Shown: one piece after another, positions 1 to 6,337 of the stretch
Layout of the letters: every line of letters begins with the position of its first letter
Numbering within the stretch: the first letter of the stretch is position 1
From: a virus
Lineage: Duplodnaviria; Heunggongvirae; Uroviricota; Caudoviricetes
DNA length: 6,337 nucleotides
Reading direction: 5' to 3' (one strand)
Virus record (IMG/VR): IMGVR_UViG_2693429524_000012
Program-made: the position numbers and the translations under genes
The notes under the pieces: generated by a model
What the model was told of the DNA's origin: nothing
Seen by the model: only the letters and a program-made list of their open reading frames with translations
The model's database searches: none

Positions 1-70
1 CCTGACTTTCCAGAACCATACGAATCGCCCGCTGACGGACTTCGGGGGAAAAACGAGTATTTTTAGTCAT
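1..70 (-). CDS. IS3-family transposase OrfA, N-terminal 23 codons (partial, runs off window)
   Basis: Complement of 1..70 translates MTKNTRFSPEVRQRAIRMVLESQ, with ATG at complement 68..70 and AAAGAGG 8 nt upstream. The N-terminus matches my recollection of IS629-group OrfA. Confidence 0.8.
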   Translation of the reverse strand, partial: MTKNTRFSPEVRQRAIRMVLESQ

Positions 71-124
71 CCTGTTTACCTCTTTCTCAGGGAGTTTAGT
101 CTCCAGGATTTCCGGGGCGGTTCA
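1..124 (-). mobile_element. IS3-family insertion sequence (IS629/IS1203/IS3411-like), left end; element continues beyond the window start
   Basis: Reverse complement of 71..124 reads TGAACCGCCCCGGAAATCCTGGAGACTAAACTCCCTGAGAAAGAGGTAAACAGG, a typical IS3-group terminal inverted repeat (5'-TG...), followed by a GAGG ribosome-binding site and the orfA start. Shares TGAACCGCCCCGG...TCCTGGAGA with the IS end at 6227. Family name is from memory of IS629 termini. Confidence 0.8.
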
Positions 125-1395: not shown

Positions 1396-3867
1396 ATGAG
1401 TAAAGTCTTTATTTGCGCCGCTATTCCTGACGAACTGGCAACAAGGGAAGAAGGCGCTGTGGCTGTAGCCACAGCCATTGAAGCTGGCGACGAACGCCGT
1501 GCTCGAGCAAAATTTCACTGGCAATTCCTGGAACATTATCCGGCTGCTCAGGACTGCGCTTATAAATTTCTTGTCTGCGAGGATAAACCCGGTATACCCC
1601 GCCCTGCCCTCGATTCCTGGGATGCTGAATATATGCAGGAAAACCGCTGGGATGAGGCGTCTGCTTCCTTTGTCCCGGTTGAGACTGAATCAGATCCGAT
1701 GAACGTCACTTTTGACAAGCTGGCCCCTGAAGTACAGAACGCTGTCATGGTTAAGTTCGACACATGTGAAAACATCACCGTTGATATGGTGATTAGTGCG
1801 CAGGAACTGTTGCAGGAAGACATGGCAACATTCGACGGACATATCGTTGAAGCGTTGATGAAAATGCCAGAAGTTAACGCCATGTATCCGGAGCTTAAGC
1901 TGCATGCCATCAGGTGGGTTAAGCATAAATGTAAGCCTGGTGCCAAATGGCCCGAAATTCAGGCAGAGATGCGCATCTGGAAAAAACGTCGCGAAGGTGA
2001 ACGCAAGGAAACCGGAAAATACACGTCTGTTGTTGATCTCGCCCGCGCCAGAGCCAATCAACAGTACACTGAAAATTCAACAAGAAAAATCAGCCCGGTC
2101 ATTGCTGCCATTCATCGCGAATACAAGCAGACATGGAAAACACTGGATGACGAACTGGCCTACGCTCTCTGGCCTGGTGATGTGGATGCCGGAAACATTG
2201 ACGGCAGCATCCATCGCTGGGCAAAAAATGAAGTTATCGACAACGACCGCGAAGACTGGAAGCGTATCTCGGCATCAATGCGCAAACAGCCTGATGCCCT
2301 TCGCTACGACCGCCAGACTATTTTTGGCCTTGTCCGTGAACGTCCGATCGACATTCACAAAGACCCTGTGGCACTGAACAAATACATTACTGAATACCTG
2401 ACTACAAAGGGCGTGTTTGAAGATGAAGGAACAAATCAGAGCACAACTGATACTCTCTCGTCGCCAGTACCAGAAACTGATGCAGTGGAAACGGCAATTC
2501 CGGACAACGAAAAAACCGAATGCAAAGTGGAAATCGAACCATCTGTAGAGCGTGAGGGGCCGTTCTACTTCCTCTTCACCGACAAGGATGGCGAAAAATA
2601 CGGTCGCGCAAACAAACTTTCTGGTCTGAATAAGGCGCTGACTGCAGGGGCTACTGAAATCACGAAAGAAGAATATTTTGCCCGCAAAAACGGTACATAC
2701 TCAGGTTCACAACAAAATACTGGTGCATCTGACACGACCGCACAACCAGAGCCGGTAAAAGTTACCGCTGAAGAAGTAAACAAAATTATGCAGGCAGCCA
2801 ATATCAGCCAGCCTGACGCCGATAAGTTGCTTGCTGCCTCTCGCGGAGAATTTGTTGCAGGGATTAGCGACCCGAATGATCCGCAATGGGTGAAGGGGAT
2901 TGAAACCCGCGACTCTGCAAACCAGAACCAGCAAGAATCGGAACAGAACGACCAGAAAACGGAACAAAACAGCCCAAATGCGCAACAAAACGAGCCAGAA
3001 ACGAAACAGGTTGAACCAGTAGCGCAACAGGAGCCGGAAAAAGTCTGCACCGCCTGCGGTCAGACCGGCGGCGGCAACTGCCCTGATTGTGGCGCGGTGA
3101 TGGGCGACGCAACATACCAGGAAACATTCGATGAAGAGTATCAGGTTGAAGTTCAGGAAGATGATCCGGAGAAAATGGAAGGCGCTGAACATCCACACAA
3201 GGAGAACACTGGCGGCAATCAGCATCACGATAGCGATAATGAAACTGGCGAGACGGCAGATCACTCAATTAAGGTGAACGGTCATCACGAAATCACATCC
3301 ACCAGCAGGACGTGTGACCATCTAATGATCGACCTTGAAACCATGGGAAAAAATCCTGATGCCCCGATCATCTCAATAGGTGCAATATTTTTCGATCCGC
3401 AAACCGGAGATATGGGACCGGAATTTAGTAAGACTATCGATCTGGAAACTGCTGGCGGAGTCATTGATCGGGACACCATTAAATGGTGGCTTAAGCAATC
3501 ACGCGAAGCGCAATCTGCCATTATGACCGATGAAATCCCGTTAGATGATGCACTGTTACAATTGCGGGAATTTATCGACGAAAACTCCGGTGAATTTTTT
3601 GTTCAGGTCTGGGGAAATGGAGCCAACTTCGACAACACGATTTTGCGCCGTTCATACGAACGGCAGGGGATCCCCTGCCCGTGGCGTTACTACAACGATC
3701 GCGATGTACGCACAATCGTTGAGCTGGGGAAAGCCATAGACTTCGATGCCAGAACGGCTATTCCATTCGAAGGTGAGCGCCATAATGCACTTGATGACGC
3801 CCGTTACCAGGCAAAATACGTTTCAGTTATCTGGCAAAAACTGATCCCGAGTCAGGCTGATTTTTAA
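1396..3867 (+). CDS. Large prophage early-left protein (~823 aa): uncharacterised N-terminal region, Q/N/E-rich linker, CxxC-x7-CxxC zinc ribbon, C-terminal DEDDh (DnaQ/RNase T-like) 3'-5' exonuclease domain
   Basis: Long uninterrupted ORF; preferred start ATG 1396 (GAGG at 1384..1387, 8-nt spacer); alternatives are ATG 1381 and TTG 1360 (ORF-track start). DEDDh motifs are visible: Exo I MIDLETMG (3325..3348), Exo II WGNGANFDNT (3610..3639), Exo III HNALDDARYQ (3781..3810). Zinc ribbon CTACGQTGGGNCPDC at 3046..3090. It occupies the position of ydfE in Qin (truncated by IS2 in K-12) and of exo/recE in lambdoid phages. Confidence 0.85.
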   Translation: MSKVFICAAIPDELATREEGAVAVATAIEAGDERRARAKFHWQFLEHYPAAQDCAYKFLVCEDKPGIPRPALDSWDAEYMQENRWDEASASFVPVETESDPMNVTFDKLAPEVQNAVMVKFDTCENITVDMVISAQELLQEDMATFDGHIVEALMKMPEVNAMYPELKLHAIRWVKHKCKPGAKWPEIQAEMRIWKKRREGERKETGKYTSVVDLARARANQQYTENSTRKISPVIAAIHREYKQTWKTLDDELAYALWPGDVDAGNIDGSIHRWAKNEVIDNDREDWKRISASMRKQPDALRYDRQTIFGLVRERPIDIHKDPVALNKYITEYLTTKGVFEDEGTNQSTTDTLSSPVPETDAVETAIPDNEKTECKVEIEPSVEREGPFYFLFTDKDGEKYGRANKLSGLNKALTAGATEITKEEYFARKNGTYSGSQQNTGASDTTAQPEPVKVTAEEVNKIMQAANISQPDADKLLAASRGEFVAGISDPNDPQWVKGIETRDSANQNQQESEQNDQKTEQNSPNAQQNEPETKQVEPVAQQEPEKVCTACGQTGGGNCPDCGAVMGDATYQETFDEEYQVEVQEDDPEKMEGAEHPHKENTGGNQHHDSDNETGETADHSIKVNGHHEITSTSRTCDHLMIDLETMGKNPDAPIISIGAIFFDPQTGDMGPEFSKTIDLETAGGVIDRDTIKWWLKQSREAQSAIMTDEIPLDDALLQLREFIDENSGEFFVQVWGNGANFDNTILRRSYERQGIPCPWRYYNDRDVRTIVELGKAIDFDARTAIPFEGERHNALDDARYQAKYVSVIWQKLIPSQADF

Positions 3868-3925: not shown

Positions 3926-4129
3926 ATGAGCAACTTATTTTTAACCGAAGATGAATTGCTAATATTAACGGGCTGCAAATATGCAAGCCACCAGCGAAAA
4001 TGGTTAACGGAAAACGGGCTTCCGTTCTATACCAATCGTAGTGGCAAACCGATTGTCAGCCGGGATCTATTTACCTGCAATAAAACTTTACCACCACGCG
4101 AGGTAGAGCCGAATTTTGGTGCAATCTAA
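3926..4129 (+). CDS. xis: Excisionase-like small DNA-binding protein (DUF4224-type Xis), 67 aa
   Basis: 67-aa ORF directly upstream of int and translationally coupled to it (TAATG overlap at 4127..4131). The N-terminus MSNLFLTEDELLILTGCKYASHQRKWLTENGLPFY resembles the small helix-turn-helix proteins usually found upstream of lambdoid integrases. Function is inferred from position and general resemblance. Confidence 0.7.
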   Translation: MSNLFLTEDELLILTGCKYASHQRKWLTENGLPFYTNRSGKPIVSRDLFTCNKTLPPREVEPNFGAI

Positions 4130-5154
4130 TGGGAAGACGAAGGAAAAATCCTGAACACGAAAAACTACCTCCAAATGTATACCCAAATAAATATAGTTAT
4201 GTATGGAAACCAACATCCAGAGAATCTGTCACACTAACCGCCATCAAGGATGGTTTAGCTGCTTTATGGAAAAAGTATGAGGAAACTGTAAATAATCGCG
4301 ATCGTGCAATGACATTCGGTCGCTTGTGGGAAAAATTCCTCGCCAGCGCCTATTACAGTGACCTCAGTCCAAGAACACAAAAAGATTATCTGCAACATCA
4401 AAAAAAGTTGCTTGCCGTATTCGGTAAGGTGCCGGCAGATTCCATAAAACCAGAACACATCCGTCGATACATGGACAAGAGAGGGGAACAGAGTAAAACG
4501 CAAGCCAACCATGAAAAAAGCAGTATGTCCCGCGTTTACAGTTGGGGGTATGAGCGAGGGTACGTGAAGGCTAACCCATGTGCAGGTGTAAGTAAATTCA
4601 AGGCCAAAAACCGCGAACGATATGTAACCGACAAAGAATACCAGGCAGTATTAAGCGTTGCACCTCTTCCTGTTTTTATCGCAATGGAAATTGCCTATCT
4701 GTGTGCAGCGAGGGTTTCCGATGTGTTATCGCTGAAATGGGAGCAGATTGGAAACGACGGAATCTTTATCCAGCAAGGGAAAACAGGAAAAAAACAGATA
4801 AAAGCATGGAGTCCACGATTACAGGCGGCGATCGAAAAAGCAAAACAGTTACCAACATCCGCCTATGTAATCAGTAATCAATACGGCAACCGATATATGT
4901 ACAAAGGCTTTAACGAAATGTGGGTAGAAGCAAGAAATCGCGCAGGCAAAATTTCAGGTATTTTAACCGACTTCACCTTTCATGATCTGAAGGCGAAAGG
5001 AATTTCAGACTATGAAGGAAGCAGTCGGGATAAGCAACTTTTCTCTGGTCACAAAACCGAGGGGCAAGTGCTAATCTATGACAGGAAGGTTAAAGTTTCA
5101 CCGACACTTGATGTCCCGTTACCTGAAAATATTCCAAGAAAATATTCCAAGTAA
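4129..5154 (+). CDS. int: Phage integrase, tyrosine recombinase of the lambda Int family (341 aa); Lys found where catalytic Arg II is expected
   Basis: By-eye alignment with lambda Int catalytic regions: AARVSDVLSLKWEQI (Arg I), QQGKTGKK (Lys), FHDLKAKG (His present, Lys at 4990..4992 where HxLR Arg is expected), GHKTEG (His), LIYDRK (Tyr). The gene ends 49 bp from the 3' end of serU. Confidence 0.9.
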   Translation: MGRRRKNPEHEKLPPNVYPNKYSYVWKPTSRESVTLTAIKDGLAALWKKYEETVNNRDRAMTFGRLWEKFLASAYYSDLSPRTQKDYLQHQKKLLAVFGKVPADSIKPEHIRRYMDKRGEQSKTQANHEKSSMSRVYSWGYERGYVKANPCAGVSKFKAKNRERYVTDKEYQAVLSVAPLPVFIAMEIAYLCAARVSDVLSLKWEQIGNDGIFIQQGKTGKKQIKAWSPRLQAAIEKAKQLPTSAYVISNQYGNRYMYKGFNEMWVEARNRAGKISGILTDFTFHDLKAKGISDYEGSSRDKQLFSGHKTEGQVLIYDRKVKVSPTLDVPLPENIPRKYSK

Positions 5155-5161
5155 TTCCAAG
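5126..5161 (+). repeat. Tandem direct repeats AAAATATTCCAAG x2 plus a third TAATTCCAAG copy, spanning the int stop codon
   Basis: Perfect 13-bp units at 5126..5138 and 5139..5151, with a third ATTCCAAG at 5154..5161. Position at the int 3' end next to the tRNA/att junction is typical of integrase arm-type binding sites. Confidence 0.6.
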
Positions 5162-5203
5162 TGTGATTTTTGTCACTGACTTAATGATGTATAAGTGATT
5201 GAA

Positions 5204-5293
5204 TTTTGGCGGAGAGAGGGGGATTTGAACCCCCGGTGGAGTTGCCCCCACTCCGGTTTTCGAGACCGGTCCGTTCAGCCGCTCCGGCATCTC
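5204..5293 (-). tRNA. serU: tRNA-Ser (anticodon CGA), 90 nt with long variable arm and encoded CCA
   Basis: Reverse complement is GGAGAGATGCCGGAGCGGCTGAACGGACCGGTCTCGAAAACCGGAGTGGGGGCAACTCCACCGGGGGTTCAAATCCCCCTCTCTCCGCCA. Seven-bp acceptor stem GGAGAGA/TCTCTCC, anticodon loop CUCGAAA (anticodon CGA), class II variable arm, T-loop GGTTCAAATCC. The symbol follows from the anticodon and the adjacent mtfA. Confidence 0.95.
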
Positions 5294-5389
5294 TCCGTTC
5301 AGATGGTTGCCATGATGCCAGGAAATTTGGCATTTTAACAGTCCCTGTCCGTGCAATTTTGTTCAAGTGACGAGTTTGCGAGCAAAACG

Positions 5390-6187
5390 ATGATTAAGTG
5401 GCCCTGGAAAGTACAAGAATCAGCACATCAAACTGCCCTTCCCTGGCAGGAAGCACTATCGATCCCCCTTTTAACGTGTCTGACGGAACAGGAACAAAGC
5501 AAATTAGTCACTCTTGCCGAACGTTTTTTACAGCAAAAGCGGCTTGTTCCTTTACAGGGCTTTGAACTGGATTCATTAAGAAGCTGCCGGATAGCACTTC
5601 TATTTTGCCTACCCGTTCTGGAGTTAGGACTGGAATGGCTGGATGGTTTTCATGAAGTCTTAATTTATCCTGCGCCATTTGTGGTCGATGATGAATGGGA
5701 AGACGATATCGGTCTGGTGCATAACCAACGTATTGTTCAGTCAGGTCAGAGCTGGCAGCAAGGGCCTATCGTTTTGAACTGGTTGGATATACAAGATTCT
5801 TTTGATGCTTCTGGTTTTAACCTGATTATTCATGAAGTCGCTCATAAGCTGGACACCCGTAACGGCGATCGCGCCAGCGGAGTTCCCTTTATTCCGTTGC
5901 GTGAGGTTGCTGGCTGGGAACACGATCTTCATGCTGCAATGAACAACATTCAGGAAGAAATCGAATTGGTTGGCGAGAATGCGGCGAGCATTGATGCTTA
6001 TGCTGCCAGTGATCCTGCTGAATGTTTTGCCGTACTTTCTGAATATTTCTTTAGCGCCCCAGAACTTTTTGCTCCTCGTTTCCCTTCATTGTGGCAACGT
6101 TTCTGCCAATTTTATCAACAAGATCCTTTGCAGAGACTGCATCGCACTAATGATACAGACTCGTTTTCGGCGACGAATGTTCATTAA
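5390..6187 (+). CDS. mtfA: MtfA (Mlc titration factor A; zinc-dependent peptidase), 265 aa
   Basis: Product starts [28 protein letters not shown], contains the HEVAH zinc-binding motif, and is 265 aa, matching E. coli MtfA (YeeI). The ORF-track start at GTG 5351 is an in-frame upstream extension; ATG 5390 is the likely start. Confidence 0.95.
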
Positions 6188-6226
6188 TTAACAACTTTGC
6201 AGATTAATTAACCAATTGAAATGGCT

Positions 6227-6337
6227 TGAACCGCCCCGGGTTTCCTGGAGAGTGTTTTATCTGTGAACTCAGGCTGCCAGATCATCGTTTCCGATGGAAG
6301 CATAATAAGCTTTTTCTGCTTCTGCCGGAGGAGTATG
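6227..6337 (-). mobile_element. IS3-family insertion sequence (IS629-like), right end; element continues beyond the window end
   Basis: From 6227 the sequence reads TGAACCGCCCCGGGTTTCCTGGAGAGTGTTTTATCTGTGAACTC, an IS3-group terminal repeat related to the one at 71..124. The complementary strand encodes a transposase C-terminus. Same orientation as the copy at the window start. Confidence 0.8.
6269..6337 (-). CDS. IS3-family transposase OrfB, C-terminal fragment (partial; frame chosen by motif)
   Basis: Complement of 6272..6337 translates HTPPAEAEKAYYASIGNDDLAA followed by TGA (complement 6269..6271). The TP-x-E-x-E-K-x-YY pattern resembles the C-terminal tail of DDE transposases. A second frame is also open here, so the frame is uncertain. 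Confidence 0.45.
   Translation of the reverse strand, partial: HTPPAEAEKAYYASIGNDDLAA

Follow-up and report, generated by a model that had tools for sequence, protein, structure and literature searches.

The int–serU junction of a 6.3-kb Escherichia coli contig as the probable right-hand attachment site of a lambdoid prophage, with a likely crossover in the tRNA anticodon stem-loop

The window analyzed here is the entire 6337-bp draft contig CYFD01000113.1 of assembly GCA_001284405.1, on which ydfC, DicF, dicB, an exonuclease gene, xis, int, serU, and mtfA follow one another in this order. Both of its ends are termini of IS3-family (IS629/IS1203-like) elements, namely the opposite ends of two copies in the same orientation (minus strand). 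At the left end, the terminal 122 nt of the transposase-proximal side (IRL) of one copy (positions 1–122, minus strand; matching annotated IS3-family copies at their 5' ends by 94–95%) sit between the prophage genes ydfB and ydfC, and homology to intact prophages begins at position 123. At the right end, the terminal 113 nt (IRR end) of the second copy (6225–6337, minus strand; 99% match to the IS3-family 3' end) sit between mtfA and asnT, with K-12 homology ending at approximately 6224–6227.

The genes upstream of int form the early-left arm of a lambdoid prophage resembling Qin and Rac. The DicF sRNA (701–752; Rfam RF00039, 76.7 bits) is located between ydfC and dicB and belongs to a Qin-type cell-division-inhibition operon carried by the prophage, which also comprises 140–358 and 927–1115. 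The exonuclease of 823 aa (1396–3867) contains YdfE_N, YdfE_C, and Rv2179c-like 3'-5' exonuclease domains as well as a long low-complexity middle part rich in Q, E, and N; in the collection, its exact sequence was found only in the source contig and in one other short contig. The chromosomal flank of the att site is formed by mtfA (5390–6187, plus strand), and since this gene lies to the right of the tRNA gene, the latter was identified as serU, as annotated in K-12. Scanning of 4900–5450 for promoters and terminators gave no signal above that of shuffled sequences.

Two genes of a recombination module precede the tRNA. The first, xis (3926–4129, plus strand), encodes a 67-aa excisionase-type directionality factor of the DUF4224 family (PHROG phrog_1266, E-value 1.7e-21; PF13986, E-value 2.8e-16), and its stop codon overlaps the start codon of int (4129–5154, plus strand), which encodes a lambda-Int-like tyrosine integrase of 341 aa with Phage_integrase and Phage_int_M domains (PF00589, above cutoff, and PF22022). 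Lambda Int was the best PDB match of this protein (E-value 7.9e-13), with an alignment to full-length lambda Int that begins at residue 1 (MGRRR..LPPN.Y); the match to the Pfam model Arm-DNA-bind_1 remained below threshold (E-value 0.1; 13 bits vs. a cutoff of 22). In the alignment of Int homologues, the nucleophile Tyr317 and both His285 and His308 were invariant, as were Arg195 and Lys218, which were read as Arg-I and the beta-hairpin Lys from the alignment with lambda Int. The position of the catalytic Arg311 (Arg-II) of lambda Int is occupied by Lys288 (codon 4990–4992; HDLKAKG) in 17 of 17 aligned homologues, which is unusual. Judging from hundreds of precise attL/attR pairs, the integrase subfamily with Lys288 is evidently active, and the member encoded here may still be so at present.

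A single tRNA gene was predicted in the window by ARAGORN, an intact tRNA-Ser(CGA) at 5207–5296 on the minus strand (Rfam tRNA model, 5210–5296), i.e., serU. Its 3' CCA end (5207) faces the stop codon of int, so that the geometry of an int ORF (4129–5154) pointing at the serU 3' end, described in an earlier reading of the sequence only, is real; the distances of that reading had to be corrected, as the gap measured 52 nt (5155–5206) instead of 49 bp and the span predicted by ARAGORN extends to 5296 instead of 5293. The 52 nt between the int stop codon and the tRNA 3' end have no K-12 homology and constitute phage DNA, the inner part of the P' arm. Within the tRNA, the anticodon stem is formed by 5253–5257 and 5265–5269, enclosing the loop at 5258–5264 with the anticodon at 5260–5262. 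Compared to the K-12 tRNA, the window differs at two positions, 5238 (G vs. A) and 5249 (C vs. T), which together turn an A-U pair of the variable-arm stem into G-C; this change is compensatory and preserves the cloverleaf. According to ARAGORN, Rfam, and a check of the cloverleaf, serU remains intact after integration, and the tRNA 3' segment occurs in the window in a single copy.

The att site was delimited by comparison with empty and occupied loci. Relative to the prophage-free serU-mtfA locus of K-12, homology runs from mtfA across the entire tRNA and ends exactly at 5206/5207; colinearity does not continue through the gap between int and the tRNA, and the comparison called for in the sequence-only reading does not refute it. 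In strain ESBL 15, a complete prophage of ~50 kb fills the interval between serU and yodB, with yodB as the far flank. At the attL of this prophage, K-12 homology spans the serU 3' flank plus 62 nt of the tRNA (TGGCGG...TTTTCGAGACCG) before phage DNA begins, and the order is yodB flank, 62-nt serU fragment (pattern TGGCGGAGAGAGGGGGATTTGAACCCCCGGT[AG]GAGTTGCCCC[TC]ACTCCGGTTTTCGAGACCGATGATAC), and ATGATACCGAATCGC. The displaced 62-nt serU 3' fragment hence adjoins yodB, and the distance from block to block is about 50.1 kb. A displaced fragment of this kind was also detected in about 880 further genomes. In genomes with an empty site, the match to the ESBL 15 attL query covers precisely the flank and the 62 nt and goes no further. 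In Citrobacter phage Chris1 (ON041214), the record of which is described as a complete, circular genome, the same 62-bp tRNA-Ser block follows int, and its identity to the tRNA stops at the same nucleotide. From the comparisons with K-12, ESBL 15, the empty sites, and Chris1, the identity block shared by attP and attB was determined to be 5207–5268 (62 bp, minus strand). It comprises the 3' strand of the acceptor stem, the T arm, the variable arm, the anticodon loop, and 4 nt of the distal anticodon stem; the phage contributes 62 of the 90 nt of serU, and 5269–5296 are the host-derived 5' part. Weak similarity to the host flank extends over 15–17 bp downstream of the tRNA (~5190–5206; ATAAGTGATTGA-ATTT vs. 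host ATAAGTCATTGATAAAG). The statement that the att core cannot be delimited from the window alone holds for the window itself, but comparison readily delimits the 62-bp block. The proposal of the earlier reading that the gene is made whole again by a tRNA 3' segment carried on the phage is supported by the 62-nt serU fragment displaced to the attL of ESBL 15.

These observations led us to regard 5125–5296 as the attR of a lambdoid prophage (with a Qin/Rac-like early region) integrated in serU by a lambda-type heterobivalent tyrosine integrase, an assignment to which we give a probability of roughly 90%. Points that speak against it are the Lys at the Arg-II position of Int, the subthreshold Arm-DNA-bind_1 match, and the frameshift label of int in the E. 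coli annotation (see below). If, instead, the adjacency of int and the tRNA were incidental and the element ended downstream of a serU gene derived wholly from the host, divergence from the empty site would be seen to start exactly at the tRNA 3' end, as it does. Against this stand the duplication of the 62-nt serU fragment at the other end of the prophage, the presence of the 62-bp serU block also in the attP of the circular Chris1 genome, and the association of the allele found at attR with the phage (see below), which together make an incidental adjacency extremely improbable.

The two serU alleles, G/C and A/T at 5238/5249, were used to narrow down the position of strand exchange. Both segregate in E. 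coli, with G/C dominant at attR and rare (7% or less) at empty sites, and ESBL 15 holds both of them, A/T at attL and G/C at attR. Strict linkage of G/C at 5238/5249 to the prophage was rejected, as exact matches exist for the phage flank with A/T and for the empty site with G/C. Allele frequencies were then counted under E-value gating in genomes that are phylogenetically related and do not represent independent events: at attR (P' arm plus tRNA), 1046 of 1153 genomes (91%) had at most one mismatch from the G/C allele; among empty sites, 3596 of 3856 genomes (93%) had at most one mismatch from the A/T allele; and at attL with an ESBL 15-like P arm (~94 genomes), A/T outnumbered G/C by 89 to 5. 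By these frequencies, the 3' part of the tRNA at attR is phage-borne. Since the allele at attR is phage-associated and the distribution at attL is host-like, exchange is placed on the anticodon side of 5249, and because the alleles are not strictly linked to their context, the interval rests on frequencies, which would confine strand exchange to the 19 bp of the anticodon stem-loop at 5250–5268. Based on the known behavior of integrases that use tRNA genes, the 7-bp overlap is most likely the loop at 5258–5264. Integration into serU, as proposed in the earlier reading, is upheld by the K-12 and ESBL 15 comparisons, but the crossover would lie in the anticodon stem-loop instead of at the 3' end of the gene.

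The finding of both alleles in both contexts, due to which a single genome cannot reveal the host allele, would leave room for strand exchange near the tRNA 3' end or in the T loop (5207–5237), with the longer identity block being incidental. Exchange at that position predicts the host allele at attR and the phage allele at attL, and the counts show the opposite; in addition, the end point of the block, 4 nt beyond the anticodon loop, is shared to the nucleotide with Chris1, the Int of which is only 58% identical. We thus consider an exchange near the 3' end to be very unlikely and retain the anticodon stem-loop as the probable crossover region. As a matter of speculation, the empty sites with the G/C allele could be natural variants or else scars of prophage loss via homologous recombination in the 31 bp of direct repeats at 5207–5237.

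The region next to the tRNA was further found to contain a repeated motif. Three copies of the octamer ATTCCAAG, all of them in 5131–5161, were counted in the window, compared to an expectation of 0.27; none of 200 shuffles reached three. These three direct repeats on the plus strand (5131–5138, 5144–5151, and 5154–5161) are predicted arm-type Int sites of the P' arm and overlap the last codons of int; the first two fall in tandem 13-bp units, and the second provides the final codons of int (TAT TCC AAG TAA, i.e., Y, S, K, and stop). The ESBL 15 locus (49.9 kb) contains ATTCCAAG three times, two of which are in the phage arm of attL. In the reconstructed attP, the repeats flank the core on both sides (three plus two), at offsets of -130, -117, -107, +47 (inverted), and +111 from the loop center. 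In the 5-kb locus of Chris1, a variant motif, TATACCAA, is present exactly five times, at offsets of -132, -119, -108, +47 (inverted), and +111. A layout that is kept while the motif has changed is good comparative evidence for these repeats being arm-type sites that would be bound by Int. The conserved layout also fits a lambda-like integrase, given that lambda Int is the best match of this protein among solved structures.

The last codons of int require separate consideration, as the NCBI annotation (PGAP) labels this gene “frameshifted” in E. coli and places its end 27 bp from the tRNA. The label probably goes back to a tandem of two 13-bp units, GAAAATATTCCAA (5125–5137 and 5138–5150); with one unit only, the ORF would end in ...PENIPSNSKCDFCH (C-terminus ...SNSKCDFCH). 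This one-unit form was found in only 46 genomes, and the two-unit form (...RKYSK) is common (about 1100 genomes). The C-terminus ...YSK is conserved in Int homologues down to 60–69% identity and reads YTK in Chris1. A recent frameshifting duplication of the 13-bp unit was ruled out by the conserved ...YSK, the three-site layout of Chris1, and the rarity of the one-unit form. By these comparisons, the 341-aa ORF is most likely the functional form of int, and the “frameshifted” flag probably arose as an artefact of the chosen reference protein. Each 13-bp unit contains one predicted arm-type site, so that the polymorphism alters the number of P' sites from three to two. In the Enterobacteriaceae-wide Lys288 subfamily, the Lys substitution or the 13-bp switch in the copy number of the C-terminal arm site might tune the chemistry or directionality of recombination; we regard this as doubtful, and if true, it would add a new kind of variation to what is known of lambda-type recombination.

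According to the proposed model, 62 bp of serU would be copied in the phage attP, starting at the 3' end of the gene and extending into the 5' strand of the anticodon stem. Int would bridge the core and the predicted arm-type sites, i.e., the three copies of ATTCCAAG beside and inside the end of int and the two on the other arm, and strands would be exchanged within the anticodon stem-loop at 5250–5268, with cleavage most likely bounding the 7-nt loop (5258–5264). The serU gene expressed after integration would be a hybrid of 28 nt of the host at the 5' end and 62 nt of the phage at the 3' end, and the displaced 3' fragment of the host would stay at attL, some 50 kb away beside yodB. The role of excisionase would fall to the DUF4224 protein, whose gene directly precedes int.

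The sequence-only reading had further held that only one att junction survives and that the partner junction was probably removed by an IS-associated deletion. The first is a claim about the genome that goes beyond what the window, a draft contig bounded by repeats, can support; in an intact relative, the partner junction is found ~50 kb to the left. Since the window is a 6.3-kb contig and attL is normally ~50 kb away, the absence of attL is expected and uninformative with respect to a deletion. A remnant prophage in the source strain, which lost its attL by IS-mediated deletion so that attR alone survives, would nevertheless be compatible with the IS3-family element that borders on the prophage upstream of ydfC (122/123) and with the second copy in the same orientation after mtfA. 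The IS/ydfC junction of the source contig was not found among the complete E. coli genomes of the collection, which implies that the source lineage is unsampled there, and the numbers of genomes with attR (1153) and with attL of a recognized type (883) indicate that loss or replacement of attL does occur. On the other side, repeats such as these IS ends would be typical break points of short-read assemblies, and the window comprises a complete draft contig with repeats at both ends, beyond which the sequence was simply not assembled. Between the two IS ends, the prophage is colinear in one piece with intact prophages (99.2%); regardless of this, attL would lie about 50 kb away. On balance, a deletion of attL in the source strain appears unlikely, with a likelihood clearly above that of the other alternatives considered here, and the deletion proposed in the earlier reading is not supported.

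Across 5426 complete E. coli genomes, the int–serU junction was present in 1153 (21%) and the empty site in 3856. The attR reading of this junction corresponds to an ordinary right-hand attachment site at a common and documented insertion site and is already known biology. A serU prophage, PP_SE11-6, is listed for E. coli SE11 (PMC2608844), and the table of that paper gives 77 nt for it, which we read as the length of the att repeat; the 62-bp block and the imperfect 15-bp extension of the present locus add up to this value. Insertion at serU is also described for Stx phages (PMC8065619, PMC13188871) and for effector-carrying prophages of O145:H28 strains (PMC7067040), and the nleB/nleH/nleF cargo of the ESBL 15 prophage agrees with the description of the latter (PMC7067040). 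These published prophages occupy the same chromosomal site as the source prophage, which is known over 5 kb only. The cited passages on serU prophages contain no mention of arm sites or of a crossover interval.

With respect to its architecture, the locus appears to be a standard lambda-type Int/Xis module combined with a tRNA attachment site of the anticodon-loop class. It resembles lambda in the gene order of int and xis, in the position of attP immediately 3' of int, and in an attP of ~250 bp. In lambda, the P' arm, next to int, carries three direct arm-type sites and the opposite arm carries two, and the predicted sites of the serU prophage are distributed likewise. In contrast to lambda, the serU prophage targets a tRNA gene, has an identity block of 62 bp instead of a 15-bp core, encodes an Xis of the DUF4224 family and an Int with Lys at the position of Arg311, and has predicted arm sites reaching into the 3' end of the int ORF. 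P22 and HP1 are examples of phages that integrate into tRNA genes at the anticodon-loop sublocation, and this sublocation is reportedly part of the classification of tRNA and tmRNA integration sites by K. P. Williams from 2002. The serU site shares with this class an identity block that begins in the anticodon stem-loop and reaches the 3' end, a tRNA restored by the phage, and a displaced 3' fragment, and nothing essential differs. A further parallel is provided by Chris1, with 58% identity in Int, an identical 62-bp block, and five predicted arm sites at corresponding offsets and in the same orientations; it differs in the arm-site motif (TATACCAA instead of TATTCCAA) and in having a host of another genus. 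The present analysis adds exact coordinates for the serU att site, i.e., the 62-bp block and the predicted 19-bp crossover interval. The prophage family concerned is found in about one-fifth of complete E. coli genomes, often with T3SS effectors or Stx as cargo, and its probable arm-site motif is provided as well. A further lesson is that a contig end in an IS repeat should not be taken for a deletion. Beyond annotation, these results matter little.

The phage collection yielded no free-phage attP with the same int. Two candidates for such an attP, vB_EcoM-606R7 and 689R5, were rejected as prophage excerpts that include the host genes mtfA and asnT, and a match in mEp332 was rejected as a fossil attL with 278 bp of the host yodB-serU spacer. 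In strain CD45, no serU fragment was detected within 36 kb to the left (late region of the serU prophage). Immediately after the serU prophage of this strain comes another lambdoid prophage, the integrase of which is a different one with a lambda-Arm domain, which suggests tandem or recombined prophages at the serU locus, and because of this second prophage in tandem, CD45 is uninformative for attL. Fossil serU attL sequences were located near tail-fibre genes in the lambdoid records mEp332 (2051–2509 of the locus), ev099, PhiR70_1, and SerU-LTIIb. They consist of 278 bp of the E. coli yodB-serU spacer (96.7% identity to K-12), ~60 nt of the serU 3' end, and P-arm DNA with arm-site motifs, and look like host DNA captured by imprecise excision.
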